Positions 9,204 through 59,974 of a stretch of DNA of 64,000 bases are shown piece by piece. The stretch lies in sequence record OK283619.1. The stretch is one strand, 5' to 3'. A program made the position numbers and the translations under genes. The notes under the pieces were generated by a model. It was not told the origin of the DNA and ran no database searches. It saw nothing but the letters and a program-made list of their open reading frames with translations. Within the stretch, counting starts at the first letter, position 1; each line of letters begins with the position of its first letter. The stretch comes from Escherichia phage LPEK22.

Positions 9204-9668
9204 ATGGCGCGTAATACGCTGGACATCTTAAAACTTTCAGCTGTCAACGATGAGGCCAGCATTGTTGACTGTATGGTTGAAGTTCAATTGAACCAAGACA
9301 AACCAGGGATTTTCCTGGGTATCAAGGAAACGCTGAGTCGGATAGGGGTTAACACTCGTCAAGAGCCTAACACCTTGTATCAAACGTGCCATATTCTGCA
9401 TAAATTTGGCAGATATCACATCGTGCATTTCAAGCATCTTTTCATGCTAGATGGGCACTACAACGGCTTTACGCGTGAAGATGTCCTGCGTATGAATCGG
9501 ATTATACGGCTTCTGGAGCAATGGAATATGGTTAAGATCTTGCATCCGGAACAAATAACCGAAGTGGCTGACATGTCTCGGATCAAAGTTGTAAAACATG
9601 ACCAAGTTTCTGAGTGGAAACTGGTTCCAAAATACACCATTCGCCCAAGTCGGGCAAAAAGCGAATAA
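9204..9668 (+). CDS. regA: RegA translational repressor of early genes
   Basis: KETLSRIGV...LYQTCHILHKFGRYHIVHFK...EWKLVPKYTI closely matches T4 RegA; 154 aa vs 122 aa in T4. Confidence 0.9.
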   Translation: MARNTLDILKLSAVNDEASIVDCMVEVQLNQDKPGIFLGIKETLSRIGVNTRQEPNTLYQTCHILHKFGRYHIVHFKHLFMLDGHYNGFTREDVLRMNRIIRLLEQWNMVKILHPEQITEVADMSRIKVVKHDQVSEWKLVPKYTIRPSRAKSE

Positions 9669-9684
9669 CTGGAGTCGCTATATT

Positions 9685-10548
9685 ATGACAACTACATTTA
9701 ATAAAAACGTGAGATTGAATTTGGCTTTTGGTAATGCGGCTGGAGATATTACAGCCCCTGACTTCGGTAAAATTCGCAATCAGGCCAAACTGGTTCTGGA
9801 AGAGACCCGCGAATTACTGGAAGCGGCTTATTTCGATCATGACATCAAACTTGAGCTGGTGGCAACTCCAAAAGAAGACACCGATGATGTTGATATGGAT
9901 AAAATCCTGAAAGCCATCATGGACGCTCAGGGTGATATCACAACTGTTAATGACGGCGTGGCCCATATCGCTGGTTTTAATGGTGATGAATGTTTACAAC
10001 GCGTGTTTGCCTCTAACATGAGCAAATTTATTCGCTCAGAAGATGAAGTCGGTCCGGCACTGGAATATTATTATTCACGCGGTTTCCCAGATGGCCAGTT
10101 ACGCGTTGAAGGTGAATTCCCTCAGGCATGCATCAAAGTGAATGAGACTGTGATGTGGAATGGCAAAGAATATCCGAAAGGAAAATTCCTGAAAAACATG
10201 GCTGTGTTCAAAGAGCCTGATTTCTCTGATATGCTGACGAATACCCCTTCCCGTCAGATCAATGACATCGTTGCCAGCATGGCAATTGAAGAAGGTCAGG
10301 TATTTGTTGATGATATGAACGGCGTGGCGTTGGTATCTCCAAAAACGTTGGAAGTAATTCTTTCTATGGCAGTTGAAAAATCTTCTCGACCCGTAGATGT
10401 TAACGGCCAAATTGAAAGTTATGTGCCAGCGTATATCATTAACGATACCAATATGCCTAAGCTGTGTGGGGTGTGGGGTGCTAATGTTCGTGTATACGCG
10501 TGCGCACCTGTTCAAAACACTGTGACACACCTCTCTCGCTTCGATTAA
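9685..10548 (+). CDS. hypothetical protein (288 aa)
   Basis: Occupies the position where T4 has DNA polymerase; start moved to ATG after regA stop; no motif recognised. Confidence 0.5.
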   Translation: MTTTFNKNVRLNLAFGNAAGDITAPDFGKIRNQAKLVLEETRELLEAAYFDHDIKLELVATPKEDTDDVDMDKILKAIMDAQGDITTVNDGVAHIAGFNGDECLQRVFASNMSKFIRSEDEVGPALEYYYSRGFPDGQLRVEGEFPQACIKVNETVMWNGKEYPKGKFLKNMAVFKEPDFSDMLTNTPSRQINDIVASMAIEEGQVFVDDMNGVALVSPKTLEVILSMAVEKSSRPVDVNGQIESYVPAYIINDTNMPKLCGVWGANVRVYACAPVQNTVTHLSRFD

Positions 10549-10572
10549 TATAATCCGTTATTCACTAAACAA

Positions 10573-10600
10573 CAGAGGCTATAATGGCCTCTGTTTTTGT
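10573..10600 (+). terminator. rho-independent terminator
   Basis: ACAGAGGC...GCCTCTGT hairpin followed by TTTTGT. Confidence 0.6.
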
Positions 10601-10617
10601 ATTCTAGAGAGGATACC

Positions 10618-11823
10618 ATGAAAGATAAACCACATGACATCCCATATTGCGGTGTCCGTGAAACCAAAATCAAATCAGCCCATCCTATGTTAAGTTCATT
10701 CCACCGCCAGCTGGCATATGAATGGATGAGGGATCGTTATGCGATACATGTCAAGAAGGACGTGCAATGCCTTCCAGCGCCATGGACGGATAATCCGGTA
10801 TTACGCCAAGTCAAGTTTTGTAACGTGCGGAGAGAGCACGATAGGCAGTCTCGAAATTTGATCAATAATATCATCCTCGATCAGGATCTCACGCTATCTG
10901 ACAAAATGTTCAACTGTGTATTGTTCCGCATGTACAACATGTGGGAACCTATACAGGCTTTGGGTGGTCCATGGACGATCGAAGAATTCGGAAACATAAA
11001 TCTTGAATGGTGTCGAGATGTTCTTCAGGAATTCGAATCTAAAGGTGGCAAAGTTTTCACCAATGCGTTTAATACAGGCGGTCTGAAACAATGCCTGGCT
11101 TTCCCTGAACTAGTTGTCAACCACAAGGAGCAACGCTTTGGCGGCATGAAGGTAAAAGTCCATCGGGTTGGCGGTGTTATAGATGAAATGGATTACAAGG
11201 TTGCCAAGAAGCTGGCCGAAGATAATCCTGGTGAATACAAAATAGAAGGCTGGGAACCATACATGCCGATGCGAGTCATCCGCTCTTTGAAGGCATTCGT
11301 CAACAAACACCCTCATTACTTTGATCGCCTCAGGGAATTTAGCCGTCCCGACTCTGTTTACCAGGCGATGTATGACGACATTGAGGGGCTTGGACCATTC
11401 TTGGCATACCAGATTTGGGTTGATTTTACATACATCGATGAATATCCATTCAGTGAAAACCACTTCACTATCGCTGGTCCAGGTTGCCGTGCTGGTATCG
11501 ATCTGTTATTTTTGGACAAGGACGGCATGACGCATGAAGAATGCATATTCTGGGTTCGTGATCATCAAGATCAATTGTTCGCTCAGTACGGGTATAAACG
11601 TAATGAATTTTGGTCGGCAGAAGAACCGGAAGACCGTTGCATGAATGTTATGCAGTTGGAGAACATGTTCTGTGAACTTCAGAAATATACCCGCTGCGTT
11701 GAGGCGGTGATGCGCGGGGAGAAACCTCGAGGAAAGGTGGGGTATAATGGTGGTGAAGTTAATCAGCCATTACAGAAGACTCCCGTTCGTTCTATTAATC
11801 TGTTAGAGAAGATGAAAAAATGA
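10618..11823 (+). CDS. hypothetical protein (401 aa)
   Basis: Strong RBS AGAGAGGA, preceded by terminator 10573-10600; Trp/Tyr-rich; no motif recognised. Confidence 0.55.
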   Translation: MKDKPHDIPYCGVRETKIKSAHPMLSSFHRQLAYEWMRDRYAIHVKKDVQCLPAPWTDNPVLRQVKFCNVRREHDRQSRNLINNIILDQDLTLSDKMFNCVLFRMYNMWEPIQALGGPWTIEEFGNINLEWCRDVLQEFESKGGKVFTNAFNTGGLKQCLAFPELVVNHKEQRFGGMKVKVHRVGGVIDEMDYKVAKKLAEDNPGEYKIEGWEPYMPMRVIRSLKAFVNKHPHYFDRLREFSRPDSVYQAMYDDIEGLGPFLAYQIWVDFTYIDEYPFSENHFTIAGPGCRAGIDLLFLDKDGMTHEECIFWVRDHQDQLFAQYGYKRNEFWSAEEPEDRCMNVMQLENMFCELQKYTRCVEAVMRGEKPRGKVGYNGGEVNQPLQKTPVRSINLLEKMKK

Positions 11824-12227
11824 AACCCGTAAAACATCATCGTTCATGGAAAGTATGCCCAGCGTGTTCAAGTCGGGCGACAAAATTGTTCAACATGAAT
11901 ACTGGGAAATATGAATGTCAAGTCTGTCGGCATCATTATGATGATCCAAAATGTCGATCTTTGGTCGACAAAATTTATAAATTTATCATTTTGTTGGGTA
12001 ATTGCGAGCAATATCAATATACCGTGTATGGTGATAGTTTAAGCCAGATCGATAAACATCTTTTGAAATTGATTTCGAAATACGATAAAGAAAGCAAGCG
12101 CCCTGTGCGCGTTGTGAGTACTCCAAAGGGTTATCCAAAGGGAACAAGATCAGTTACGGTTGTTGGTTACACCAGTTATGACGGGAAACGGTTCAGAAGT
12201 ATTCGAGTAAACATGATTCCCGTTTAA
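11820..12227 (+). CDS. zinc-ribbon protein (135 aa)
   Basis: CPAC...CQVC pair near N-terminus; ATGA start/stop overlap with upstream gene. Confidence 0.5.
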   Translation: MKPVKHHRSWKVCPACSSRATKLFNMNTGKYECQVCRHHYDDPKCRSLVDKIYKFIILLGNCEQYQYTVYGDSLSQIDKHLLKLISKYDKESKRPVRVVSTPKGYPKGTRSVTVVGYTSYDGKRFRSIRVNMIPV

Positions 12228-12228
12228 A

Positions 12229-12257
12229 CTTTTCAATAAATCTTTTCAGCGTATATT
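12229..12257 (+). promoter_or_regulatory. early-promoter-like element: -35 CTTTTC, 17 bp, -10 TATATT
   Basis: Preceded by TTCAATAA motif; followed by leader hairpin and conserved initiation motif before ATG 12324. Confidence 0.4.
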
Positions 12258-12323
12258 GACCTCACTTTAACGACGCGCCCCGATAAGGGCGCTCACTTTG
12301 AACTGAAACAGGAAGACTATACC

Positions 12324-14342
12324 ATGGCAGAATTCAAACCCTTCGCAACGGCAGTTAATAACAACGTGCTGGCGATGTCCGCAACTGGTCTGTTCATGAC
12401 CAATATCGATAAAGATGCTCTTTGGGATCTGTATCTGGCATCTTTCCCTGCTGGTACTAACCCGCTGTACCGCGAACGTACTGAACACGATTGCACCTGC
12501 TGTAAACAATTCATCCGTAACATCGGCGGTGTTGTCACCATCGATTCAGAACTGAACGTAATTTCTATCTGGGACAACATTGATCTGGGTAATGAATATG
12601 ACGTGGTGGCTGCGGCTCTTTCCGCGTATGTCAAACAACACGCAATCGTCGATGTTTATTTTAACGATTCTGCCAAAGTCGGCCTGTCTCACAATCACGA
12701 ATCTGGTGAAGATGGCAAAATCCGTACTTACAATCATTTCCATACCCAATTACTTGGTAGCTATGTTCTGCGTCCGGACGCAATCGCTTCGAAAAAAGGT
12801 GAAATCCGCCAGGCTATTGAATTGTTTGAACGCGGTCTGCGTGAAATTACTCTGGAATCAGCTGAAATCGTTCTGGAACTGATTGACCAGAATTCTCTGT
12901 ATCGCGGCGCAGAACACAAAGCAGCAGTGAAGGGATTTGTTGAAACCAAAAAGGCATATGAACAAGTCCCCGAATCAGCCCGTTCTCTTTGGGCATGGCA
13001 TACTGGATACCGTTCAAACAATCATGTTCCACACGGCATCCGCAACACAGTTATCGGCACTCTGCTGACAGATATCAGCGAAGGCGTGGAACTGGAAAAG
13101 GCTGTTAAATCGTTTGAATCCAAAGTTGCTCCGGCGAACTACAAACGTCCGACAGCGCTGGTTTCAAAATCCATGATCGAAAACGCTCAGAAAGAAGTTA
13201 TTGCTCTGGGTTTGGAAGACTCACTGGCGCGTCGTTATGCGGTTTACGATGATCTGACAATCAACAACGTTCTGTTCGCAGATCTGGCCGCTCAGAAAGC
13301 GATGGATCCGTTTGCACAGCTGGCCGCCGAAGTGAAAACTCCGACCAAATCCCTGGAAAAAGTTGAAGAGATCAGCGTTGATGATTTCCTGAGCAATGTT
13401 CTGCCAAAAGCGCATTCAATGGAAGTGCTTGTAGAGAATTCTCATACTAGCAACCTGATGTCCCTGGTTGCTCCGGCGAACCCAGATGCGCCTAACCTGT
13501 TCAAGTGGAACAACGGTTTCTCCTGGTCTTACAACGGTGAAGTGACCGATTCCATTAAAGAACGTGTAAAGGCTGCTGGTGGTAAAGTTGACGGGTATCT
13601 GCGCGTTTCCTTGGCGTGGCACAACAACGACGACCTCGATCTGCATATGTTCAACAACATGGAGCACGTTTACTTCCGTGATCGCCGCTCTATGACAGGT
13701 GCCCATCTGGATATCGATATGAACGGTATGGATGGTATTGATCCAAACCGCGCTCCGGTGGAAAATATCATCTTTACAGATGAAAGCAAGCTGCGCGATG
13801 GTGAATACCGTTTCGAAATCCACAACTACAATCAACGTGAAAAAATCGACGAAGGGTTTGAAGTCGAAGTAGAATACAAAGGCGCAACGCATCGTTTCAG
13901 CCATCCTGGCCTGAAAGATCAGGGGCGTATCACTGCAGTCATCCTGACTGTTAAAGACAAACAAGTTGTTGGCATTAAGTCCGAACTGGCTAATGTTGAT
14001 AAGTCTAAAGAAGTTTGGGGTATCAAGACCGCGACCTTCCAGAAAGTACAGCTGGTTCTGAATTCACCAAACCATTGGGATGGGGAGCAAACTGGTAACA
14101 AGCATGTGTTCTTCATTCTTGAAGGCTGTGCTAATCCTGAAGGTACTCGTGGTTTCTACAACGAATATCTGAAGCCGGAACTGGATAAACATCGTAAGGT
14201 TTTTGAAATGTTGGGTAGTAAAATGAAAGTCCAGCCGAATGAAAACCAACTGTCCGGTCTGGGATTCTCGACGACGCAACGCAACCACGTGTTCGTCAAA
14301 GTGTCCGGCGCGTTTAACCGTACTGTAAAAGTCATTTTCTAA
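12324..14342 (+). CDS. large hypothetical protein (672 aa)
   Basis: Long ORF with early-promoter-like element and conserved initiation motif upstream; no Walker A; function unknown. Confidence 0.6.
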   Translation: MAEFKPFATAVNNNVLAMSATGLFMTNIDKDALWDLYLASFPAGTNPLYRERTEHDCTCCKQFIRNIGGVVTIDSELNVISIWDNIDLGNEYDVVAAALSAYVKQHAIVDVYFNDSAKVGLSHNHESGEDGKIRTYNHFHTQLLGSYVLRPDAIASKKGEIRQAIELFERGLREITLESAEIVLELIDQNSLYRGAEHKAAVKGFVETKKAYEQVPESARSLWAWHTGYRSNNHVPHGIRNTVIGTLLTDISEGVELEKAVKSFESKVAPANYKRPTALVSKSMIENAQKEVIALGLEDSLARRYAVYDDLTINNVLFADLAAQKAMDPFAQLAAEVKTPTKSLEKVEEISVDDFLSNVLPKAHSMEVLVENSHTSNLMSLVAPANPDAPNLFKWNNGFSWSYNGEVTDSIKERVKAAGGKVDGYLRVSLAWHNNDDLDLHMFNNMEHVYFRDRRSMTGAHLDIDMNGMDGIDPNRAPVENIIFTDESKLRDGEYRFEIHNYNQREKIDEGFEVEVEYKGATHRFSHPGLKDQGRITAVILTVKDKQVVGIKSELANVDKSKEVWGIKTATFQKVQLVLNSPNHWDGEQTGNKHVFFILEGCANPEGTRGFYNEYLKPELDKHRKVFEMLGSKMKVQPNENQLSGLGFSTTQRNHVFVKVSGAFNRTVKVIF

Positions 14343-14379
14343 TTGATTTGACCACAAATTCGTAATAAGGAACAATGAA

Positions 14380-14751
14380 ATGTTTGATCAAGCAACCCGT
14401 TTAAAACTGCGTTTCAACTCTAACAAAGGTCTGCTGTCTGTTGAGCAGGTTTGGGATCTGAACCTGAATGCCCTAAACGAACTGGCGAAAGACCTCAGCC
14501 GTCAGGTGAAGGAAGCCGCCAGCGATGAAGAAGATTTCATCGGCGTGAAAAGCGCAGTCGACTCTCAGTTACAACTGCGTTTCGATATCGTGAAAGCGAT
14601 CATCGGTGTCAAACTGAAAGAACGTGACGAAAGCGCAACCGCCGCCGAACGTAAAGCGAACAACCAGGTTATTCTGGAACTGATCCAGCGTAAGAAACAG
14701 CAGGAGCTTGAAGGTAAATCTGTTGAAGAACTGGAAGCGCTGTTGAAATAA
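14380..14751 (+). CDS. hypothetical coiled-coil protein (123 aa)
   Basis: ORF with RBS AAGGAA; followed by terminator 14773-14799. Confidence 0.5.
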   Translation: MFDQATRLKLRFNSNKGLLSVEQVWDLNLNALNELAKDLSRQVKEAASDEEDFIGVKSAVDSQLQLRFDIVKAIIGVKLKERDESATAAERKANNQVILELIQRKKQQELEGKSVEELEALLK

Positions 14752-14772
14752 TCTGTCGGCTCCGGCCTGAGC

Positions 14773-14799
14773 AACCCCGCCTTGTGCGGGGTTTCTTTT
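14773..14799 (+). terminator. rho-independent terminator
   Basis: AACCCCGC-CTTGT-GCGGGGTT hairpin followed by TCTTTT. Confidence 0.65.
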
Positions 14800-14810
14800 G
14801 GAGAAATATT

Positions 14811-15047
14811 ATGAAACAAATTACTAAGACAGTACAAATCACCCAATATCAAACGGATGACGGCAGAGTGTTCGATACTCTTGGTCAGGCCGAACATTAT
14901 GAGAAGATGAAGTCCGGTATTCGCAAGGTATGCCCTTCTTGTGATGGCAAAGGTCGCGACTCTCCGTCTGGCGACGGGCGTGATATGACGACTTGTCATT
15001 ATTGTGGTGGTAAAGGCTGGGTAGAAAAGAAAGAGATATGGGGTTAA
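14811..15047 (+). CDS. DnaJ-type zinc-finger protein (78 aa)
   Basis: Two CxxCxGxG repeats (CPSCDGKG, CHYCGGKG); RBS GGAG. Confidence 0.5.
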   Translation: MKQITKTVQITQYQTDDGRVFDTLGQAEHYEKMKSGIRKVCPSCDGKGRDSPSGDGRDMTTCHYCGGKGWVEKKEIWG

Positions 15048-15457
15048 TGAAACCTGTCATCTGTGATTACTGCGGCCTTCCTGCCAAATACGTCGGGGGT
15101 GATGTTGTATACCCCCACCGCCCTGAACTCCGCAATCTGAAGTTCTGGGTGTGCACTCCATGTGACGCCCGAGTCGGTTGCCATAAACATGGTGATGGAA
15201 AGACCCCTATGGGAAGGATGGCGAATGCCGCTCTCCGTGCTGCTAAGCAGGAAGCTCATAGGTCGTTTGACCCTATCTGGAAAAGTGGGCAGAGGAGCAG
15301 GAGTGATGCTTACAGCTGGCTGGCTCATAATCTGGGGATCAAGAAGCGCGATTGCCATATCGGCTTGTTCGATATCGACACGTGCCGTAAAGTAATATCT
15401 GTGTGTGACCAACTAGAGGTGTCAAACGATGTCAAAGGAAATACAAGAATCTTTTGA
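15047..15457 (+). CDS. zinc-finger protein (136 aa)
   Basis: CDYCG...CTPCDARVGCHKH cysteine cluster; TAATG overlap with upstream gene. Confidence 0.5.
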   Translation: MKPVICDYCGLPAKYVGGDVVYPHRPELRNLKFWVCTPCDARVGCHKHGDGKTPMGRMANAALRAAKQEAHRSFDPIWKSGQRSRSDAYSWLAHNLGIKKRDCHIGLFDIDTCRKVISVCDQLEVSNDVKGNTRIF

Positions 15458-15680
15458 AAAGTTATCTCAGGTAATGACCGATTGCAACCGCCGAAATTAT
15501 TGCGATGAAGCGTATACGCAATTGAAAACCGTCGTCGAATCTGAGTTGAATAACCTTTCAACTTTTAAAGATATTCAGACCGAAGTGCTATATCTGTCGG
15601 ATGAAGATTTAAGGCGTTGTCCCCGCAAGATTTACCAATTACTGGATCGTTTGGTGAAAGTGGGGGTGGATAATGGGTAA
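15429..15680 (+). CDS. hypothetical protein (83 aa)
   Basis: ORF with RBS GAGGTG. Confidence 0.4.
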   Translation: MSKEIQESFEKLSQVMTDCNRRNYCDEAYTQLKTVVESELNNLSTFKDIQTEVLYLSDEDLRRCPRKIYQLLDRLVKVGVDNG

Positions 15681-16398
15681 TCGTGAAGGGATTAAACTCA
15701 CTCCAGAACTTCTAAAGTCCCACATCGCCGAAGTGATTTATGAAGACCGTGAAGTCGGTGGTCATCGTGTCATTACATGCCACTTCAAGATGGACAATGG
15801 CTTCGTCGTCTGGGGGAAGAATAGTTCAACTTCTATCGACCCAGCCAACTTTGATGAAGAGTTGGGTAAGAAACTGGCCTATGAAAAGACCTTCTCCCAG
15901 CTGTGGGAACTGGAAGCATATCGCGCGATGGTAGAAAAGCAGATCATCGATGTGTCCGTCAAAGATGCTAAGATCAACATTGATGAATATGTGTCAGAAA
16001 GGGAAGCGATACATGAGATGGGTGGTTCTGAATTCCTTAAGGGTAAAGGACAATCTGTCGTGTTTCGTCATCCCAAGGATCCAAGTCGGGGATTTCGAGT
16101 TGAATTTGTTCGCACCGATAACGAACGTTATAACGAACGACGTAATGGTGAAGCAAGATCTTTGGTGGAAGCGTATCTTCGCTCGTTCATGACTTCTGAA
16201 GAACTAAATTCTGAACTTGTTTTGCGTTTGGCGAAAACGTGTAATGCTGCTTCAGGGGATTATCCGTGGTGTGACCTGTCAGAAGACAAACGCCAAGCAG
16301 CTTGTGATCGTGTTAAGAAATTCTTGTTAGATCCGAAAGCCGAACCTGATGATTCCGTGGGGGCGCTGTATAGAGCCATCGTGGTGTCATACTTGTGA
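15673..16398 (+). CDS. hypothetical protein (241 aa)
   Basis: ORF overlapping upstream stop; N-terminal CHFKMDNGFVVWGK region recalls a phage Gp49-like domain (weak). Confidence 0.5.
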   Translation: MGNREGIKLTPELLKSHIAEVIYEDREVGGHRVITCHFKMDNGFVVWGKNSSTSIDPANFDEELGKKLAYEKTFSQLWELEAYRAMVEKQIIDVSVKDAKINIDEYVSEREAIHEMGGSEFLKGKGQSVVFRHPKDPSRGFRVEFVRTDNERYNERRNGEARSLVEAYLRSFMTSEELNSELVLRLAKTCNAASGDYPWCDLSEDKRQAACDRVKKFLLDPKAEPDDSVGALYRAIVVSYL

Positions 16399-16497
16399 TT
16401 TTCAAAAGTCTTTCAAAATCAATAACGTCCGGCAAATTGCTGGGCGTTTCAATTAACAAGCCAAGGTATAATGGTCTAATTGTAAAGCGAGGAAATC

Positions 16498-16857
16498 ATG
16501 TCCGTAAAAATGAAAGGTGTTGAATTCAACGCCTACTATAACGATGACGAATATTGGGAAAAGGGTGCTTGGCACGATGATCATTGCGTCAAAGTTAATG
16601 GAGAATACCGTGAAGAACTCGATGAAAATATTCCAGACGATGCTGATGTCGTAATTGAGTCAGGCACAGTTTATATCCCTGTAGCTGGAGAAAGTGGTGC
16701 TGAAGAGAAAGATATCCAGTTGGTCACTCATTTCAAGAATTGGCGTAAGAAAAAGAACTTTTCTTTCATTGTTGTGATTGTAAAGAAAGATAAGGCGTCG
16801 GAAGTCCGTGAAGCCCTGAAGAATATTTCTGGTGTCATGGAAGTGAAAGGGAATTGA
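16498..16857 (+). CDS. hypothetical acidic protein (119 aa)
   Basis: ORF with RBS GAGGAA. Confidence 0.45.
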   Translation: MSVKMKGVEFNAYYNDDEYWEKGAWHDDHCVKVNGEYREELDENIPDDADVVIESGTVYIPVAGESGAEEKDIQLVTHFKNWRKKKNFSFIVVIVKKDKASEVREALKNISGVMEVKGN

Positions 16858-16858
16858 T

Positions 16859-17029
16859 ATGACCAAACCATTTTTGCGTTCAGGAGTTGACTCTCTTGAC
16901 TCACAGTTTAAACCCAGCGAAGTTTTAATCCAACAGATTGAAACTAATCGCGAATTCATAGAACACATGCTGGCGAAGCCGGAAGGTGAAGCCGTCCATA
17001 CCACTAAAGAAGGTAATAACGATGATTGA
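16859..17029 (+). CDS. small ORF (56 aa), below ORF-track size cutoff
   Basis: ATG 2 nt after upstream stop with RBS AAAGGGAA; stop overlaps the vWA gene start. Confidence 0.3.
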   Translation: MTKPFLRSGVDSLDSQFKPSEVLIQQIETNREFIEHMLAKPEGEAVHTTKEGNNDD

Positions 17030-19238
17030 ATCATTAACATTTAAGAATGCGGTTGCGACCGTCGCGCCGTCTAACCATGTAATCGTTGTGGATATCTCCG
17101 GTTCCATGTATCGTTCACTTCCAGAAGTCCGTAAGCATCTGAAGGAGAACCTGCCTTCCCTGGTGAAACCGGAAGATACTGTGAGCATCCTTTACTTTTC
17201 ATCTCGCGGTGATTTCGGAACGGTATTTGCCGGACGTCAGATTAACAGTGCAACTGACCTCAGTGAGATCAATAATCTAATTGACCGTTTCCTGAAGCCT
17301 TCTGGTTGTACTGGTTTTGTTGAGCCGCTGAAACTGGCTGCGGAAACTGCCATTAGCCTGAATAAACCTGGTTATGTTAACAACCTGGCATTCATGACCG
17401 ACGGGTATGACAACTGCTGGCGTTCTAATGAAATCCTGGATGCCGCTGAAGTACTGCCCAAAGCGTTTGATAACATTACCTTCATCGAATACGGTTGGTA
17501 TTGTAATCGCGAACTGCTGGGGCTAATGGCAGAACGTTCTGGTGCGACCCACGTATTCGCCGAAGGACAGAATGAATATCAGACCGAATTGGAAAACGTG
17601 CTGAAAACTTCTTCACCGAAAGTTGTAGTCGATGTTCCTCTGGTTTATACCCATGCCATTTATGTTGAAAATGGCGTGGCGACTGTTTTAGCTGTGCATC
17701 CTGATGAAGAGCACCCTATTGGCCACGTCAGCATCCCTGAAAGCGTTTCTCAGCTGTGGGTTGTAAACCCCAACATGATCGACCAGCTGGATAATCTGGC
17801 AGACATCCAAGCGGCATACGTGCTGGCATTTTACGGCGTGTATACCATGGACGCCGATCTGGTCTGGGCCGCGCTGAAGAAGACGGGTGACGTCCGCTTC
17901 ATCAAACAGTACAGCAACTGTTTCACCAAGCAGGACTATTCCAACATCAAAGTCGATCTGACTCAGGCTATCGTAGACGAATCTCTGCGAGGAGTTGATG
18001 GCATCGATTATAATATGGTTCCGGCTGAAGACGCCACCACCATTGTTGATGTTCTGACGTATCTGGCTGAAGCAGATGTCTCTATCGTCACCAAGCATCC
18101 ACTATTCTCTTACAAGAGCATTGGGCGCGGTACTGTACAGAAAGTTGATGACACCGAAGACAAGTTGGCCGAAGAGATTGCGAATGCGACTTCTAAAGAA
18201 GAGCGTAAAGCCCTGGCGCTCAAACTGGCCGAGCACGAAGATTGGACCCCCGAATTCAATCCGGTTGATGATAAAGGGATTGTCCCGATCAGCAATTTGG
18301 TCTACAATTCAGAACGTCCTAACATCAGTGTGCAGACAGTTCAACACGGAACGGTTGTTGTGCCTGAGTTTGTACAGAAGAAATATGAACTTCCTGAAGA
18401 GCTGGGGACCTGGCGTTATCGCAATTACACCATTGTCAAGGATGGTATCATCAACCTGAAAACAATGCCTATCACTGCAGATTCTCCGATTGTTCGGGCT
18501 AAGGTGGCACAGGATTTGACTGCCATGGGTGTTCATGTGTTTGGTGGACCGGAAGTCTTCATTGTAAATCTGGAAAGTGTCCCAATGGTTAACCGCGCCA
18601 TGACAAAGAATATCAGTGCTGCTGAATTCTTTGCAGACAATGTGCGCCGTGAAGCATTGAAGGCAAAACAGAAAGTTCTGAAATTCTACCGTGATGAACT
18701 GGTTGGTAAAGGCAACGCTACTGGTCTGGCTTCAAAATATGGCAAAGAAGCAGCTGATTTCCTGTCAGCAAACGGAATTCGCGACTATGGATTTTCACCG
18801 AAGACTTCTTCTGTAGAATCAACCGATGTCTATATGAGTCGTGAATTGAATGTGAAAATCAAAGGCGCATCTTCACTGCCGAGCATCGCGTCTGTTATCA
18901 AAAAACAGACGGACGGTAAAAAACTGAATGTCGCTGATCAGCTGATCGCTAATGCCCTGGCTGAATACAATGCATTTGTTAAATCGCCGATGATCACCAG
19001 CGTACCGGAAGAGACTCAGAAAAAGCTGATTGAAAGCTGGATCGGAGACGCAGCAAAAGCGGCCATTAACGAAGTCCGCGCCCTGAACAAAACGCTGTCC
19101 AAGGTAGTTTATGGGATTGTTGCAGGCCATGGTTGGTTTACCGACCTGGATTTGGAAGAATCCACTATGGATGTGGAAGTTGATGGGGTGAAATACACCG
19201 TCACTGCCGAACTGGCTGAAAAAGAAGTCAAAATCTAA
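17022..19238 (+). CDS. von Willebrand factor A (vWA) domain protein (738 aa)
   Basis: MIDAS motif DISGSMY near N-terminus and vWA-like topology; start moved to internal ATG (MIESLTF). Confidence 0.75.
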   Translation: MIESLTFKNAVATVAPSNHVIVVDISGSMYRSLPEVRKHLKENLPSLVKPEDTVSILYFSSRGDFGTVFAGRQINSATDLSEINNLIDRFLKPSGCTGFVEPLKLAAETAISLNKPGYVNNLAFMTDGYDNCWRSNEILDAAEVLPKAFDNITFIEYGWYCNRELLGLMAERSGATHVFAEGQNEYQTELENVLKTSSPKVVVDVPLVYTHAIYVENGVATVLAVHPDEEHPIGHVSIPESVSQLWVVNPNMIDQLDNLADIQAAYVLAFYGVYTMDADLVWAALKKTGDVRFIKQYSNCFTKQDYSNIKVDLTQAIVDESLRGVDGIDYNMVPAEDATTIVDVLTYLAEADVSIVTKHPLFSYKSIGRGTVQKVDDTEDKLAEEIANATSKEERKALALKLAEHEDWTPEFNPVDDKGIVPISNLVYNSERPNISVQTVQHGTVVVPEFVQKKYELPEELGTWRYRNYTIVKDGIINLKTMPITADSPIVRAKVAQDLTAMGVHVFGGPEVFIVNLESVPMVNRAMTKNISAAEFFADNVRREALKAKQKVLKFYRDELVGKGNATGLASKYGKEAADFLSANGIRDYGFSPKTSSVESTDVYMSRELNVKIKGASSLPSIASVIKKQTDGKKLNVADQLIANALAEYNAFVKSPMITSVPEETQKKLIESWIGDAAKAAINEVRALNKTLSKVVYGIVAGHGWFTDLDLEESTMDVEVDGVKYTVTAELAEKEVKI

Positions 19239-19246
19239 ATTCAACT

Positions 19247-19270
19247 GGCGGGGAAACCCGCCTTCATTTT
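19247..19270 (+). terminator. rho-independent terminator after vWA gene
   Basis: GGCGGG-GAAA-CCCGCC hairpin followed by TTCATTTT. Confidence 0.55.
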
Positions 19271-19275
19271 GAGAT

Positions 19276-19593
19276 ATGCTTATGTCAAACAAACCAACTT
19301 ATGTTGAAGTAATGCGTGTTCTGGCTCAGTACGCTTGTGACAACCTGAACATGGAAACCTGGCGCAACGGGGATCACAAGGACAAGTTTGATAACATTGA
19401 TGATAATATCGATGCTTTAGCGCCGTTACGGGTTAAGAATGATCTCGGCGGTGACGATCTTGACATGATTGAGCTGGTCATGGAAATCGAAGAAGAGTAC
19501 GATGTAGAAATTAGTGACGAGTGGGTGGGTAAACATGGAGATGATCCTACCCTCGGAGAGTTAGCTGAACTCGTCGTTGTTCTCTGCAAATAA
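19276..19593 (+). CDS. acyl carrier protein-like protein lacking the phosphopantetheine-attachment serine
   Basis: DLGGDDLDMIELVMEIEEEYDVEISDE aligns with ACP [27 protein letters not shown]; Ser replaced by Asp (codon GAT). Confidence 0.7.
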   Translation: MLMSNKPTYVEVMRVLAQYACDNLNMETWRNGDHKDKFDNIDDNIDALAPLRVKNDLGGDDLDMIELVMEIEEEYDVEISDEWVGKHGDDPTLGELAELVVVLCK

Positions 19594-19602
19594 TAATCCA
19601 TG

Positions 19603-19671
19603 AAATCCCCAATAATTATTGGGGATTTTTACTTTCAAAGGCTTTACTTGAATAAACATTTGCCGTATTAT
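19603..19671 (+). promoter_or_regulatory. terminator hairpin plus early promoter: -35 CTTTAC, 18 bp, -10 TATTAT
   Basis: Hairpin AAATCCCC/GGGGATTT with T-run, then CTTTAC...TATTAT 53 nt upstream of ATG 19725. Confidence 0.55.
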
Positions 19672-19724
19672 TCAATAACTGGCTAACGTGGGGTTGGTCA
19701 GAAATTGAATAGGTTGATTATAAC

Positions 19725-19964
19725 ATGTCAAACAAGAAAGTAGAAACGGCAGTAGAAATAGACCGCAATTGGGGCTTGCTCCGCGCTAAAGGATTCCGCC
19801 GTGTGTACATGACTAAGGAAGTCTATGCTTCGCGCCGAGATGTTATCATTAGCAAGAAAGGAAAAGTATGGGTTGCTGAAGAGGTTGATGCCGAAACGGG
19901 TGTCGTCGGTAAGGTTAAAGCCAAGGCGAATATTCTTTTCGCTCTTCTGAAGCATATCAATTAA
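19725..19964 (+). CDS. hypothetical basic protein (79 aa)
   Basis: ORF downstream of early promoter at 19642-19671. Confidence 0.45.
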   Translation: MSNKKVETAVEIDRNWGLLRAKGFRRVYMTKEVYASRRDVIISKKGKVWVAEEVDAETGVVGKVKAKANILFALLKHIN

Positions 19965-20023
19965 TTCTATAAATTATGGCGGGGTATGATTACCCCGCCG
20001 ATTTGAAATGCAGGAACTATACC

Positions 20024-20479
20024 ATGACCCGTATCAATGTTATTCCCGTTGAATCTCTTTGCGACCAACACCTCCTTGCCGAGTACAAAGAACTTGCGCC
20101 AGTTGTCCTTAACGTGGTGAATGGAAAACGCCGTAATCTCAAGGGCGCTCCAAAGCAGTACAAACTCAACGAAGGTCATGTGCTGTTCTTCCGCGACAAA
20201 CTCATTTATCTGATCGAGCGCTACGATCAGCTTGTTGCCGAACTGATTTCTCGTGGGTATGTTGTCAACTATCCTTCGCTCCGCAATCAGGTGACGTCTG
20301 ACAATCGACAGGAACTCGCGATCTATTTGAACGATTACCAACCGACCCAGGCAGCAGTAGAAGAGAATGCCGAGCGCATTGTCGAACGTCTGAATGGCAT
20401 GGGCAAGATCACGTATAACAGAACACCAGTAGATCCATCCTACATGGTGAACGTTATGAAACAAACATTCCAATTTTGA
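20024..20479 (+). CDS. denV: endonuclease V (pyrimidine dimer DNA glycosylase, DenV)
   Basis: MTRINVIPVESLCDQHLLAEYKELAPV matches T4 DenV N-terminus; start moved to internal ATG with conserved initiation motif. Confidence 0.88.
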   Translation: MTRINVIPVESLCDQHLLAEYKELAPVVLNVVNGKRRNLKGAPKQYKLNEGHVLFFRDKLIYLIERYDQLVAELISRGYVVNYPSLRNQVTSDNRQELAIYLNDYQPTQAAVEENAERIVERLNGMGKITYNRTPVDPSYMVNVMKQTFQF

Positions 20480-20491
20480 AGAGACTATATC

Positions 20492-20770
20492 ATGACAGAT
20501 CAAAGAAGTATTGCTCGTTCGGAAATCAAAGATATTATACAGAGCAAAACCAACGAAACTCATGCTCAATCCAGAATGCTATCTCGATTTGTTGAAATTA
20601 AGTTTGACATTGAAGAGAATAACAATCGGAGAGCGCTGGAGGGAATGTTGGCGATTATCTTGGGCCATGTCACCAATTCAGCATACGACATGGATGATTT
20701 AACTCGTTTGTTGAACGCCCAGAATAACGTTGGGAATTCTGTTCGCGAATTGCTGTTTAAGTCCGAATGA
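20492..20770 (+). CDS. hypothetical protein (92 aa)
   Basis: ORF only. Confidence 0.4.
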   Translation: MTDQRSIARSEIKDIIQSKTNETHAQSRMLSRFVEIKFDIEENNNRRALEGMLAIILGHVTNSAYDMDDLTRLLNAQNNVGNSVRELLFKSE

Positions 20771-20807
20771 ACTAACTAAGGGATAATCCTATATCCCGAG
20801 GTGTGTC

Positions 20808-21257
20808 ATGTTCCTTACATCCTTTATTGACTGGATGAATATCATAAATGGCCTGAGGATTCCTGTTGGGAACCTCGGGCTTTCTCGTTCTTCTATGCCG
20901 CAAATCGATGCCGACAAACAAGAAGATTTTCACAAATATCTTGAAGACAACGGCGTGTCCATAGATGCTGCGCAAGTGCCCATCAAAATGCTTCGTCTTA
21001 CCCAGAACGAAATCAATAAAATGAAGGTCTGGAAGATTATGAAGCAGATCAGAAATAAGAAGCCCATGGGTCGAGTTTGGGTGTCTTCTGACAATTACGT
21101 TGTTGACGGGTCTCACCGATTTGTCGCTGCGTTGAACATGGACGGCAAACAGCGCATGAAGGTCTACAAAGTTGATTTGCCAGCGATGGAATTTGTTAAA
21201 CTCGCTAAACAGTTTCAGGGTGTGCGATACAGAACGGTCAGCGATACCCGTTTCTGA
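20808..21257 (+). CDS. ParB-like nuclease domain protein
   Basis: LRLTQNEIN...YVVDGSHRFVAALN resembles ParB/Srx N-terminal domain. Confidence 0.4.
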   Translation: MFLTSFIDWMNIINGLRIPVGNLGLSRSSMPQIDADKQEDFHKYLEDNGVSIDAAQVPIKMLRLTQNEINKMKVWKIMKQIRNKKPMGRVWVSSDNYVVDGSHRFVAALNMDGKQRMKVYKVDLPAMEFVKLAKQFQGVRYRTVSDTRF

Positions 21258-35710: not shown

Positions 35711-35765
35711 ATATTCAATAAAAGGGGCAAAAGCCCCTTTACTTCTTCAATAACCCACGTATAAT
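35711..35765 (+). promoter_or_regulatory. terminator hairpin plus early promoter: -35 CTTTAC, 17 bp, -10 TATAAT
   Basis: AAAGGGGC-AAAA-GCCCCTTT hairpin fused to CTTTACttcttcaataacccacgTATAAT. Confidence 0.65.
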
Positions 35766-35813
35766 TCTAAACATAAGCAGTACGACACCAACTTGAAAAG
35801 CAGGAACTACATT

Positions 35814-41829: not shown

Positions 41830-41868
41830 AAATACTTCAAAAATAATTTAAAAATTTATTGAAAAAGA

Positions 41869-41898
41869 CTTTACTCTTCAATAATCATGCACTATTAT
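41869..41898 (+). promoter_or_regulatory. early promoter: -35 CTTTAC, 18 bp, -10 TATTAT
   Basis: Same CTTTAC-tcTTCAATAA spacer architecture; preceded by terminator at 41805-41829. Confidence 0.55.
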
Positions 41899-41975
41899 AG
41901 TTCACATAGGGCGGTACACAACACCCCGCCGAATGAAAAGTGAAACGACCCAACTACATTATGAGGAATTACATC

Positions 41976-59878: not shown

Positions 59879-59907
59879 GTTTACATCTTCTAAAAAGGCA
59901 GTATATT
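59879..59907 (+). promoter_or_regulatory. early promoter: -35 GTTTAC, 17 bp, -10 TATATT
   Basis: Preceded by TTCAATAAAAAGTGG; 67 nt upstream of ATG 59975. Confidence 0.5.
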
Positions 59908-59974
59908 AATGTTCCAGACGCACAGTTGAACATTAGACTGCCAAAGAAGGTTACTACACAAAAGGGTTTTTATT

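Follow-up and report, generated by a model that had tools for sequence, protein, structure and literature searches.

A widespread two-gene cassette, a plastic small-gene slot and a stand-alone vWA protein, best read as a mosaic, in a ViI-like Kuttervirus

Positions 12324-19238 of the 64-kb stretch of phage DNA analysed here (the whole of which we call the window) are, in our moderately confident reading, a mosaic of three independently inherited units, namely a g672-g123cc cassette, a slot of small genes and a vWA gene, with the roles proposed below and located in the replication/nucleotide-metabolism arm of the genome. A sequence-only reading had presented these 7 kb as one module. This picture proved misleading and is removed, because the cassette, the small genes and the vWA gene differ in their distribution and a terminator lies between them. 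In phages phiA8-29 and pf16, the g672 and vWA genes are both present and far apart, and RB43-like phages and PBS1 have vWA homologues without a detected g672. Some linkage of the cassette and the vWA gene is nevertheless suggested: both in Ackermannviridae and in an unrelated contig (L071), g672 and the vWA gene are no more than about 5 kb apart, their order is the same, and RPPK-NAMPT separates them.

The Salmonella phages vB_SalM-ps4, BSP101 and heyday share 97-99% DNA identity with the window, which identifies it as belonging to a ViI-like Kuttervirus (Ackermannviridae). All nine proteins reported for the block were recovered as plus-strand ORFs within 12324-19238 (672, 123, 87/79, 139, 83, 241, 119, 56 and 738 aa), and the ACP-like gene said to follow them is present. 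Two of the three zinc-finger proteins that had been counted, both with paired CxxC motifs, lie in the block (14784-15047 and 15038-15457), but the third is a zinc-ribbon gene at 11820-12227, upstream of the block start, and is absent from phage heyday. The first of these ORFs opens with a GTG at 14784; the start at 14811 was chosen by correspondence with the heyday CDS and by a PHROG match to residues 12-87. The genes were rightly called uncharacterised: neither the 672-aa protein nor the last ~450 aa of the vWA protein could be assigned a function by searches of Pfam, NCBIfam, PADLOC, PHROGs and the PDB, and the ten proteins searched against known defence and counter-defence families gave 0 PADLOC model matches. 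The 672-aa protein indeed has no P-loop, as no Walker A motif was found among the 17 proteins encoded at 9598-21257, block and flanks included. The statement that the block has no T4 counterpart is only partly true: RB43, which is T4-like, and its relatives encode a full-length vWA homologue (48.6% identity). The features are as follows.

12230-12257, plus strand: sigma-70-like promoter TTTTCA-16-TATATT upstream of g672, containing the TTCAATAA motif
12272-12294, plus strand: GC-rich hairpin downstream of the promoter and upstream of the g672 start codon, with a weak T-tail (-13.6 kcal/mol, z -3.6)
12324-14342, plus strand: g672, built of a novel N-terminal core, an inserted TerD-like beta-sandwich and a C-terminal domain
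13584-13997, plus strand: aa ~421-558 of g672, a beta-sandwich insert of TerD-like, Ca-binding type
14380-14751, plus strand: g123cc, a helical protein of 123 aa, partner of g672 and next to its long, TerD-containing form at every locus examined
14773-14801, plus strand: intrinsic-terminator-like hairpin and U-tract ending the g672-g123cc unit (-18.5 kcal/mol, z -3.3)
14811-15047, plus strand: small zinc-finger protein (two CxxC motifs; weak match to DnaJ CXXCXGXG), found in only some Kutterviruses
15038-15457, plus strand: DUF3268 zinc-finger-containing protein (PF11672, E 1.1e-37, 129.5 bits, above cut-off)
15429-15680, plus strand: 83-aa protein, variably present
15673-16398, plus strand: 241-aa protein with an N-terminal N4 gp49 / Sf6 gp66 family domain
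16498-17029, plus strand: variable slot, with 119-aa and 56-aa genes here and RPPK and NAMPT in related phages
17022-19238, plus strand: 738-aa vWA protein (vWA aa 1-195, beta-sandwich aa ~196-250, conserved C-terminal ~450 aa)
19247-19270, plus strand: terminator-like hairpin (19247-19262) with a T-run to 19270, after the vWA gene
19276-19593: ACP-like gene after the block (PF00550 match)

The g672 and g123cc genes are a bicistronic cassette, which has a sigma-70-like promoter of its own, ends at a strong terminator and is intact across many unrelated lineages. The TTCAATAA-containing pattern of the promoter was also found at other intergenic promoters in the window. The block had been described as lying between two terminators; stable hairpins do flank it (12272-12294 and 19247-19262), but the strongest hairpin is internal, at 14773-14801, and phiCbK has an annotated terminator at the matching position. 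The hairpin at 12272-12294 is either a 5' leader element or the terminator of the upstream gene.

The g672 family comprises about 9,200 clusters at 50% identity. Its members keep 45-50% identity over their full length between very different phage lineages and are present in essentially all Kutterviruses, and the cassette was found in Ackermannviridae, Vequintavirinae, phiCbK-like, N4-like, Bastille-like and cyanophage genomes. It is thus one of the commoner large phage gene pairs without an assigned function, and many of its carriers are therapeutic candidates. Neither the whole g672 protein nor its sub-domains matched anything in Pfam, NCBIfam, PADLOC or PDB sequence searches. Its homologues bear a precomputed Pfam label, PF26675, of which no mention was found in the literature searched, and the matches of a BFVD fold search were all viral proteins that are themselves uncharacterised, among them one of the giant virus Indivirus. 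No search made here supports the annotation of the BIS47 homologue as 'DNA-directed RNA polymerase'. A role of g672 in making the ViI thymidine hypermodification is unlikely, as g672 occurs in many lineages that are not known to carry it and as 5-NeOmdU was obtained in vitro with five other proteins, gp67, gp160, gp226, gp243 and gp247 (PMC8989533). The core (aa 1-420) has a conserved HDCxxC...H138 site and many conserved Arg and Trp residues, and is followed by the insert and by the C-terminal domain (aa 565-672). Because of the conserved Arg/Trp residues and the possible Zn site, the core would be expected to act on nucleic acid or a nucleotide-type ligand.

A g123cc homologue adjoins the g672 homologue in 80 of 80 viral loci. 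Searches of Pfam, NCBIfam, PADLOC and PDB sequences gave no match for g123cc, and a profile match to SdhE-like 1puz (E 0.34 over 26 residues) was judged to be due to chance. Shorter g672 homologues, seen at five loci, have neither the TerD-like insert nor the partner gene. Because homologues without the insert also go without the partner, we infer from these five short-form loci and the phyletic correlation that g123cc works with the TerD-like domain and probably binds it. A two-gene unit with a TerD-like insert and a partner that tracks this insert offers a concrete handle for experiments. The sole source of expression timing for the cassette is the cyanophage Ma-LMM01, whose homologues (37% identity) gp014 and gp013 fall in the middle, replication-class cluster B5 (PMC5780444 Table S3). 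The cassette usually lies among replication and nucleotide-metabolism genes; the co-location with replication genes (30/63) is weak evidence, because such genes occupy a large share of these genomes. The g672-g123cc complex may be cytoplasmic and active in the replication phase.

The insert has a TerD beta-sandwich fold, and its likeness to TerD is at the fold level only. Its motifs are W432-x-N434-x-DDLD439, LDxDxN (462-467) and VEN (479-481); D436/D437/D439, D463/D465/N467 and E480/N481 are invariant in the g672 family, and only the first motif aligns to TerD. The isolated domain had no Pfam match at E<=10, TerD was absent from the matches of a profile search against PDB sequences, and hhalign against six Klebsiella TerD-domain paralogues gave a probability of 4%. 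The insert thus differs from the TerD family (Klebsiella TerD, PDB 2kxt; Streptomyces SCO6318, PDB 2qz7) in lacking a significant sequence or profile match, in being embedded in a 672-aa protein whose core is otherwise novel, and in having an obligate small helical partner, and the window lacks TerC, TerB and TelA genes. The domain might serve as a regulatory module for Ca2+ or a small ligand.

The resemblance to TerD raises an alternative that we consider improbable, in which the block represents a Ter-like system, degenerate and carried by phages: the two cassette proteins, the vWA protein (taking the place of TerF/TerY) and the PRTases of related phages would act together, sensing or making a nucleotide-derived metabolite and Ca2+, for superinfection exclusion or protection of the NAD+/nucleotide pool. 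We keep it under consideration because, in Acinetobacter phage ME3, a canonical Ter operon lies immediately before the cassette (gp177, with gp178 as its partner) on the same strand. The genes before gp177 encode a TerF-like vWA protein (gp168), a membrane protein, a canonical TerD (gp171; E 1.6e-29 against Klebsiella TerD) and PRTase-HAD-PRTase, a cluster described as a Ter system by Iyer et al. (PMC7824862). The g672-partner-RPPK-NAMPT-...-vWA order in Ackermannviridae and the unrelated contig also favours it, as does the Klebsiella ter operon, which likewise unites TerD paralogues, a vWA protein, HAD and ATP-grasp genes. However, ME3 is the only lineage in which the cassette adjoins canonical Ter genes. 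No TerD or TerC genes were found in the 80 viral loci, the window or the phiCbK region, and a TerC, TerB, TelA, TerF or PRTase/HAD neighbourhood was absent from the window and the 80 viral loci. A second g672-Ter neighbourhood was sought in phage FBKp34; judged from annotation, no ~670-aa ORF occurs in the 40-109 kb surrounding its Ter cluster. The vWA protein matched only the generic VWA, VWA_2 and VWA_3 profiles of Pfam and not vWA-TerF-like, and tblastn with ME3 gp168 found no match in the window at E<=1e-3. The fold-level nature of the TerD likeness and the separate occurrence of the vWA and g672 genes in the phages named above also argue against it. A broader version, which we likewise hold to be unlikely, is that of a widespread unrecognised phage system in which a TerD-like sensor of Ca2+ or a ligand, gated by g123cc, controls a new core that is an enzyme or binds nucleic acid, tied to PRPP/NAD+/nucleotide metabolism, with the vWA protein cooperating in Ackermannviridae as the phage counterpart of the Ter stress/exclusion system of bacteria. 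If a link to Ter or to NAD+/PRPP metabolism were true, a phage function would be tied to the bacterial Ter system, which is poorly understood.

Within the mosaic, the five small genes constitute a plastic slot between the cassette and the vWA gene, which carries NAD+-salvage cargo in relatives. A divergent version of the 241-aa protein, with a RyR domain, is encoded by related phages. In related Ackermannviridae the NAMPT and RPPK genes sit in this slot, and in contig L071 they come after the g672 pair; the window lacks them and has the 119-aa and 56-aa genes in the slot. It has been proposed in a review that these NAD+-salvage genes could aid phage evasion of NAD+-depleting defences (PMC11721090). 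The locus is a landing place for counter-defence cargo, because the slot holds NAMPT and RPPK in related phages, with both genes missing in this phage.

The block had been suggested to be an early host-takeover or anti-defence module, inhibiting host processes or defence systems. The slot cargo of relatives speaks in favour of this suggestion, as it is the very cargo proposed for evasion; for the block as a whole we find it improbable. The sigma-70-like promoter upstream of the block and the lack of a housekeeping family assigned to its proteins would fit, and the block encodes small zinc-finger proteins, which are typical of takeover cassettes. Early takeover is doubtful for the cassette, because the Ma-LMM01 homologues are middle genes and because of its usual location among replication and nucleotide-metabolism genes; the early takeover genes of Ma-LMM01 are gp054-gp063 only. 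Anti-defence genes are fast-evolving and patchy, unlike g672 with its conservation across lineages and its presence in essentially all Kutterviruses, and the absence of PADLOC matches also counts against this reading. In addition, a published comparison of Vi01-like phages lists the vWA and DUF3268 proteins in its numbered annotated-protein table (PMC10892097).

The third unit of the mosaic is a phage-restricted, stand-alone protein with a vWA domain and a beta-sandwich. The 738-aa protein scored 30.8 bits against Pfam VWA (cut-off 23.8) and has the vWA fold. Its MIDAS is intact, as had been stated: D24, S26 and S28 are nearly invariant, and T97 and D127 invariant, among 30 homologues. The reported lack of an adjacent AAA+/MoxR partner also stands, with no Walker A motif encoded beside the vWA gene and no match below E = 1.7 when Pokken gp31 was used as a MoxR-type tblastn query over the 64-kb window. 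Its description as unusual does not, since ATPase-independent vWA proteins are common. The best structural matches were ArnB, ITIH1, Sec23/24, Rpn10 and TFIIH p44/Ssl1, all of which are known to function without a dedicated ATPase. The 738-aa protein has in common with ArnB, the Sec23-24 trunk-plus-barrel and ITIH1 (PDB 8s05, 5a8j, 1m2v, 6fpy, 4fx5) a vWA trunk followed by a beta-sandwich, and differs from them in its ~450 extra conserved C-terminal residues and in being restricted to phages. This C-terminal region had no structural match and no sequence match in Pfam, NCBIfam, PADLOC or PDB sequence searches. Phage MoxR(AAA+)-vWA pairs (N4 gp24 and the adjacent vWA/metallopeptidase; Pokken gp31-gp32) likewise have a phage-encoded MIDAS vWA, but the 738-aa protein has no metallopeptidase domain, and no AAA+ gene lies next to its gene or elsewhere in the 64-kb window. 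Of 848 phage records with a MoxR-like gene, only 34 are from Salmonella phages, as against about 160 Salmonella Kutterviruses.

By analogy with ArnB, Sec23/24 and ITIH-type proteins, the vWA protein could be an adaptor that needs no ATPase and uses its MIDAS to clamp an acidic residue on a target from host or phage, and its large, conserved C-terminal region would hold the real activity. A place for the vWA protein, and perhaps for g672, in the virion or its assembly, for example as a tail-associated adhesin or an assembly co-chaperone, is very improbable, given that the genes lie in the replication/early arm, far from structural genes, in Kuttervirus, RB43 and PBS1, that there is no AAA+ partner, that PHROGs classes the family as unknown, and that no block protein is among the Sajous1 virion proteins named in the passages covered.

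The vWA gene has no conserved neighbour; a conserved small gene upstream of it was sought across lineages and none was found. The context of a vWA homologue in an Achromobacter locus gave no interpretable clue. Zinc-finger genes lie near the vWA gene, and ArnA is the zinc-ribbon/FHA partner of ArnB.

The 6.9-kb block of Escherichia phage LPEK22 at 12324-19238 is 97-99% identical to sequences of many Salmonella and Escherichia Kutterviruses (Ackermannviridae, ViI-like). All matching records label its genes as hypothetical, the exceptions being "putative vWa containing protein" and a single "putative chaperone protein". The sequence-only reading had reported nine proteins here; nine plus-strand ORFs are present at the coordinates it gave, and its observation of the block was largely right. 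Its proposal of one host-takeover or anti-defence module was not supported. Three parts make up the stretch: a two-gene cassette that is very widespread and carries a TerD-like insert, a slot for cargo genes, and a vWA protein that stands alone and is ATPase-independent. The synteny comparison across related phages that it had suggested went against a single module: the cassette is kept, the small genes come and go, and the vWA family is differently distributed. Of the new facts, four are the most useful: the two cassette genes are obligately paired, insert and partner are correlated, a homolog has middle-class expression, and there is a single adjacency to a Ter operon. The features at the borders of and inside the block are as follows:

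10597-11823, + strand: 408-aa protein directly 5' of the block, matching the 5-hmdU DNA kinase helical domain (PF18723, E 1.7e-83)
11820-12227, + strand: 135-aa zinc-ribbon gene with two CxxC pairs, just upstream of the block
12230-12257: sigma-70-like promoter with the TTCAATAA-containing pattern common to other promoters of the window
14773-14801: strongest hairpin (-18.5 kcal/mol), with UUUCUUUU after it; inside the block, between the 123-aa gene and the one that follows

Three stable hairpins were found in and around the block. Because the strongest is internal, the block is not one unit between two terminators, as had been thought. On the upstream side are replication genes of the T4 type (exonuclease, UvsW-like helicase, clamp, clamp loader, and RegA) and a MazG-like NTP pyrophosphohydrolase gene; downstream are the ACP-like gene and a pyrimidine-dimer glycosylase gene. 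The 408-aa protein has no Walker A motif and may be a stand-alone helical paralog related to the ViI thymidine-hypermodification enzymes. Three zinc-finger proteins had been counted in the block, but only two with paired CxxC lie inside it, the third being the upstream zinc-ribbon gene. The latter is present in the window and some Kutterviruses and absent from phage heyday, where a gap of ~110 nt separates the genes that flank it in the window; it is an insertion/deletion polymorphism, with an insertion relative to heyday.

The cassette consists of the 672-aa protein gene (g672; 12324-14342, + strand) and a 123-aa helical partner gene (14380-14751, + strand). More than 7,500 word-sharing homologs of g672 were found (9,247 representative clusters at E<=1e-3), nearly all of 650-700 aa and 45-50% identical between lineages. 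By tblastn, g672 occurs in 558 phage records, including Ackermannviridae, Vequintavirinae, phiCbK-like phages, Bastille-like Bacillus phages, N4-like Pokken, Ma-LMM01, ME3, and Cellulophaga phages. A homolog of the 123-aa protein adjoins it on the same strand in 80 of 80 viral loci, nearly always directly downstream, and no other neighbor is conserved among the viral loci compared. The pair corresponds to gp39/gp40 of Pokken, gp014/gp013 of Ma-LMM01, gp177/gp178 of ME3, and gp145/gp144 of phiCbK, the last followed by an annotated terminator; it is also found in BIS47. Homologs tagged Pfam PF26675.1 are present in the protein database, and no mention of PF26675 was found in the literature searched.

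Short homologs of 538-562 aa are encoded by PaBG, Bosavirus FMYAK-P1 and AXL_1, FBKp24, and Moabite. They align to residues 24-432 and 565-671 of g672 and do not possess the TerD-like insert (residues ~421-558, alike at the fold level only). No partner gene was detected for these five, and AXL_1, FBKp24, and Moabite, the three records with annotated terminators, each show one directly 3' of the short gene. Since the forms without the insert are also without the partner, our inference is that partner and insert function together. Residues conserved in both forms (R52, D56, C57, C60, W83, D84, H138, R240, D250, Y273, R275, R303, R304, E367, W395, N397, E614, R624, and E628) would fit a metal site together with a charged surface for ligand binding. 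The core fold may also exist outside phages, as protein A0A1V0SEF2 (624 aa) of the giant eukaryotic virus Indivirus ILV1 is a structural relative (BFVD; Foldseek E 1e-7, 13% identity).

In RNA-seq of Ma-LMM01, both genes of the pair (gp014 and gp013) belong to cluster 2, subclass B5, the middle class that holds the genes for replication, recombination, and nucleotide metabolism; the early class is limited to gp054-gp063 (PMC5780444). In other phages, the pair lies near a family A DNA polymerase, DnaB-like helicase, ATP-dependent ligase, or SF2 helicase gene in 30 of 63 loci; other settings include RNR, PNK, and ligase; dCTP deaminase, thymidylate synthase, and tRNAs; or ThyX, UvsX, and NrdA. 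This points weakly to a replication-phase cytoplasmic role, because replication and nucleotide genes fill much of such genomes.

Among close relatives, the 87-aa, 83-aa, 119-aa, and 56-aa genes are variably present, and the 241-aa gene has an alternative form with 47% identity. In some Kutterviruses this form (L009, 12865-13737) carries an N4 gp49/Sf6 gp66 domain and a RyR domain (PF02026, E 5e-10). The slot between the 241-aa and vWA genes is occupied in five Ackermannviridae loci by genes for ribose-phosphate pyrophosphokinase (RPPK) and a NAPRTase-family NAMPT, both of which the window lacks. Both genes occur in L009 (13849-16364), L016 (12544-15047), L011, L012, L018, L048, L060, and L071, a contig unrelated to Ackermannviridae in which they are directly 3' of the g672 pair. 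According to a review, these genes vary among Agtrevirus phages of Ackermannviridae, and its authors propose that they could aid evasion of NAD+-depleting defenses (PMC11721090). An 8-nt overlap of the 56-aa gene with the vWA start codon (17022-17029, + strand) suggests translational coupling of the two. No 56-aa homolog was detectable upstream of the vWA gene in seven other lineages (RB43, its Flagellimonas-contig relative, PBS1, and bacterial/MAG loci L089-L093).

The 738-aa protein (17022-19238) is, as proposed, a true vWA protein with conserved MIDAS residues. No Walker A motif was found in or beside the block, and a MoxR-type query had no match in the window. The missing AAA+/MoxR partner had been called unusual; it is not anomalous, since several structural matches (Rpn10, TFIIH p44/Ssl1, ArnB, Sec23/24, and ITIH) act without a dedicated AAA+ partner. 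Across 503 phage records, the family is distributed differently from g672, with members in Ackermannviridae, RB43-like and Slopekvirus-like T4 relatives, Shewanella phage Thanatos, pf16, PBS1, and Rhizobium phages. No upstream or downstream neighbor is conserved between lineages; in RB43 and PBS1 it is surrounded by small hypothetical genes, none of them for an ATPase. A search of 185,579 species genomes gave only seven loci, one plainly an RB43-like phage contig. Around the vWA gene, this Flagellimonas marina contig (NZ_JBHSCL010000010.1, 178,077 bp) and coliphage RB43 are collinear, baseplate genes 25, 26, and 51 included, so that a T4-like phage genome sits inside the bacterial assembly. 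In Aeromonas phage phiA8-29 (NC_048660.1; 13076-15274 and 75461-77440), the vWA protein is 66.7% identical to that of the window, and the g672 homolog, 60 kb away, only 42.9%. This comparison suggests separate histories for the two genes, and the vWA gene may have been transferred horizontally.

A linked, Ter-like function of the g672 pair and the vWA protein is unlikely. In Acinetobacter phage ME3 (5756-14443), the g672 homolog and its partner are directly 3' of a same-strand Ter-type run encoding a TerF-like vWA protein, a membrane protein, a canonical TerD (E 1.6e-29 to Klebsiella TerD), a PRTase, a HAD protein, and a PRTase. NAD synthetase and macro-domain genes lie just upstream of this run, and the cluster was described as a Ter system by Iyer et al. 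(PMC7824862). The L071 contig has the order g672, partner, RPPK, NAMPT and, ~1.5 kb on, a vWA homolog, with no flanking genes in common with Kutterviruses. However, no canonical Ter genes were found around g672 in the 80 viral loci, in the window, or in the region examined in phiCbK; going by annotation, FBKp34 has no g672-sized gene in the 40-109 kb examined around its Ter cluster; and the two families are often unlinked or alone in a genome.

Finally, the promoter pattern TTTACT, a spacer with TTCAATAA, and CGTATA(C/A)T recurs between genes at ~25-60, 12230-12257, 19643-19680, 35735-35770, 41868-41900, and 59880-59910, the clearer promoters being those at about 25-60, 35735-35770, 41868, and 59880. 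It is probably the early/middle consensus of this phage for the host RNAP.
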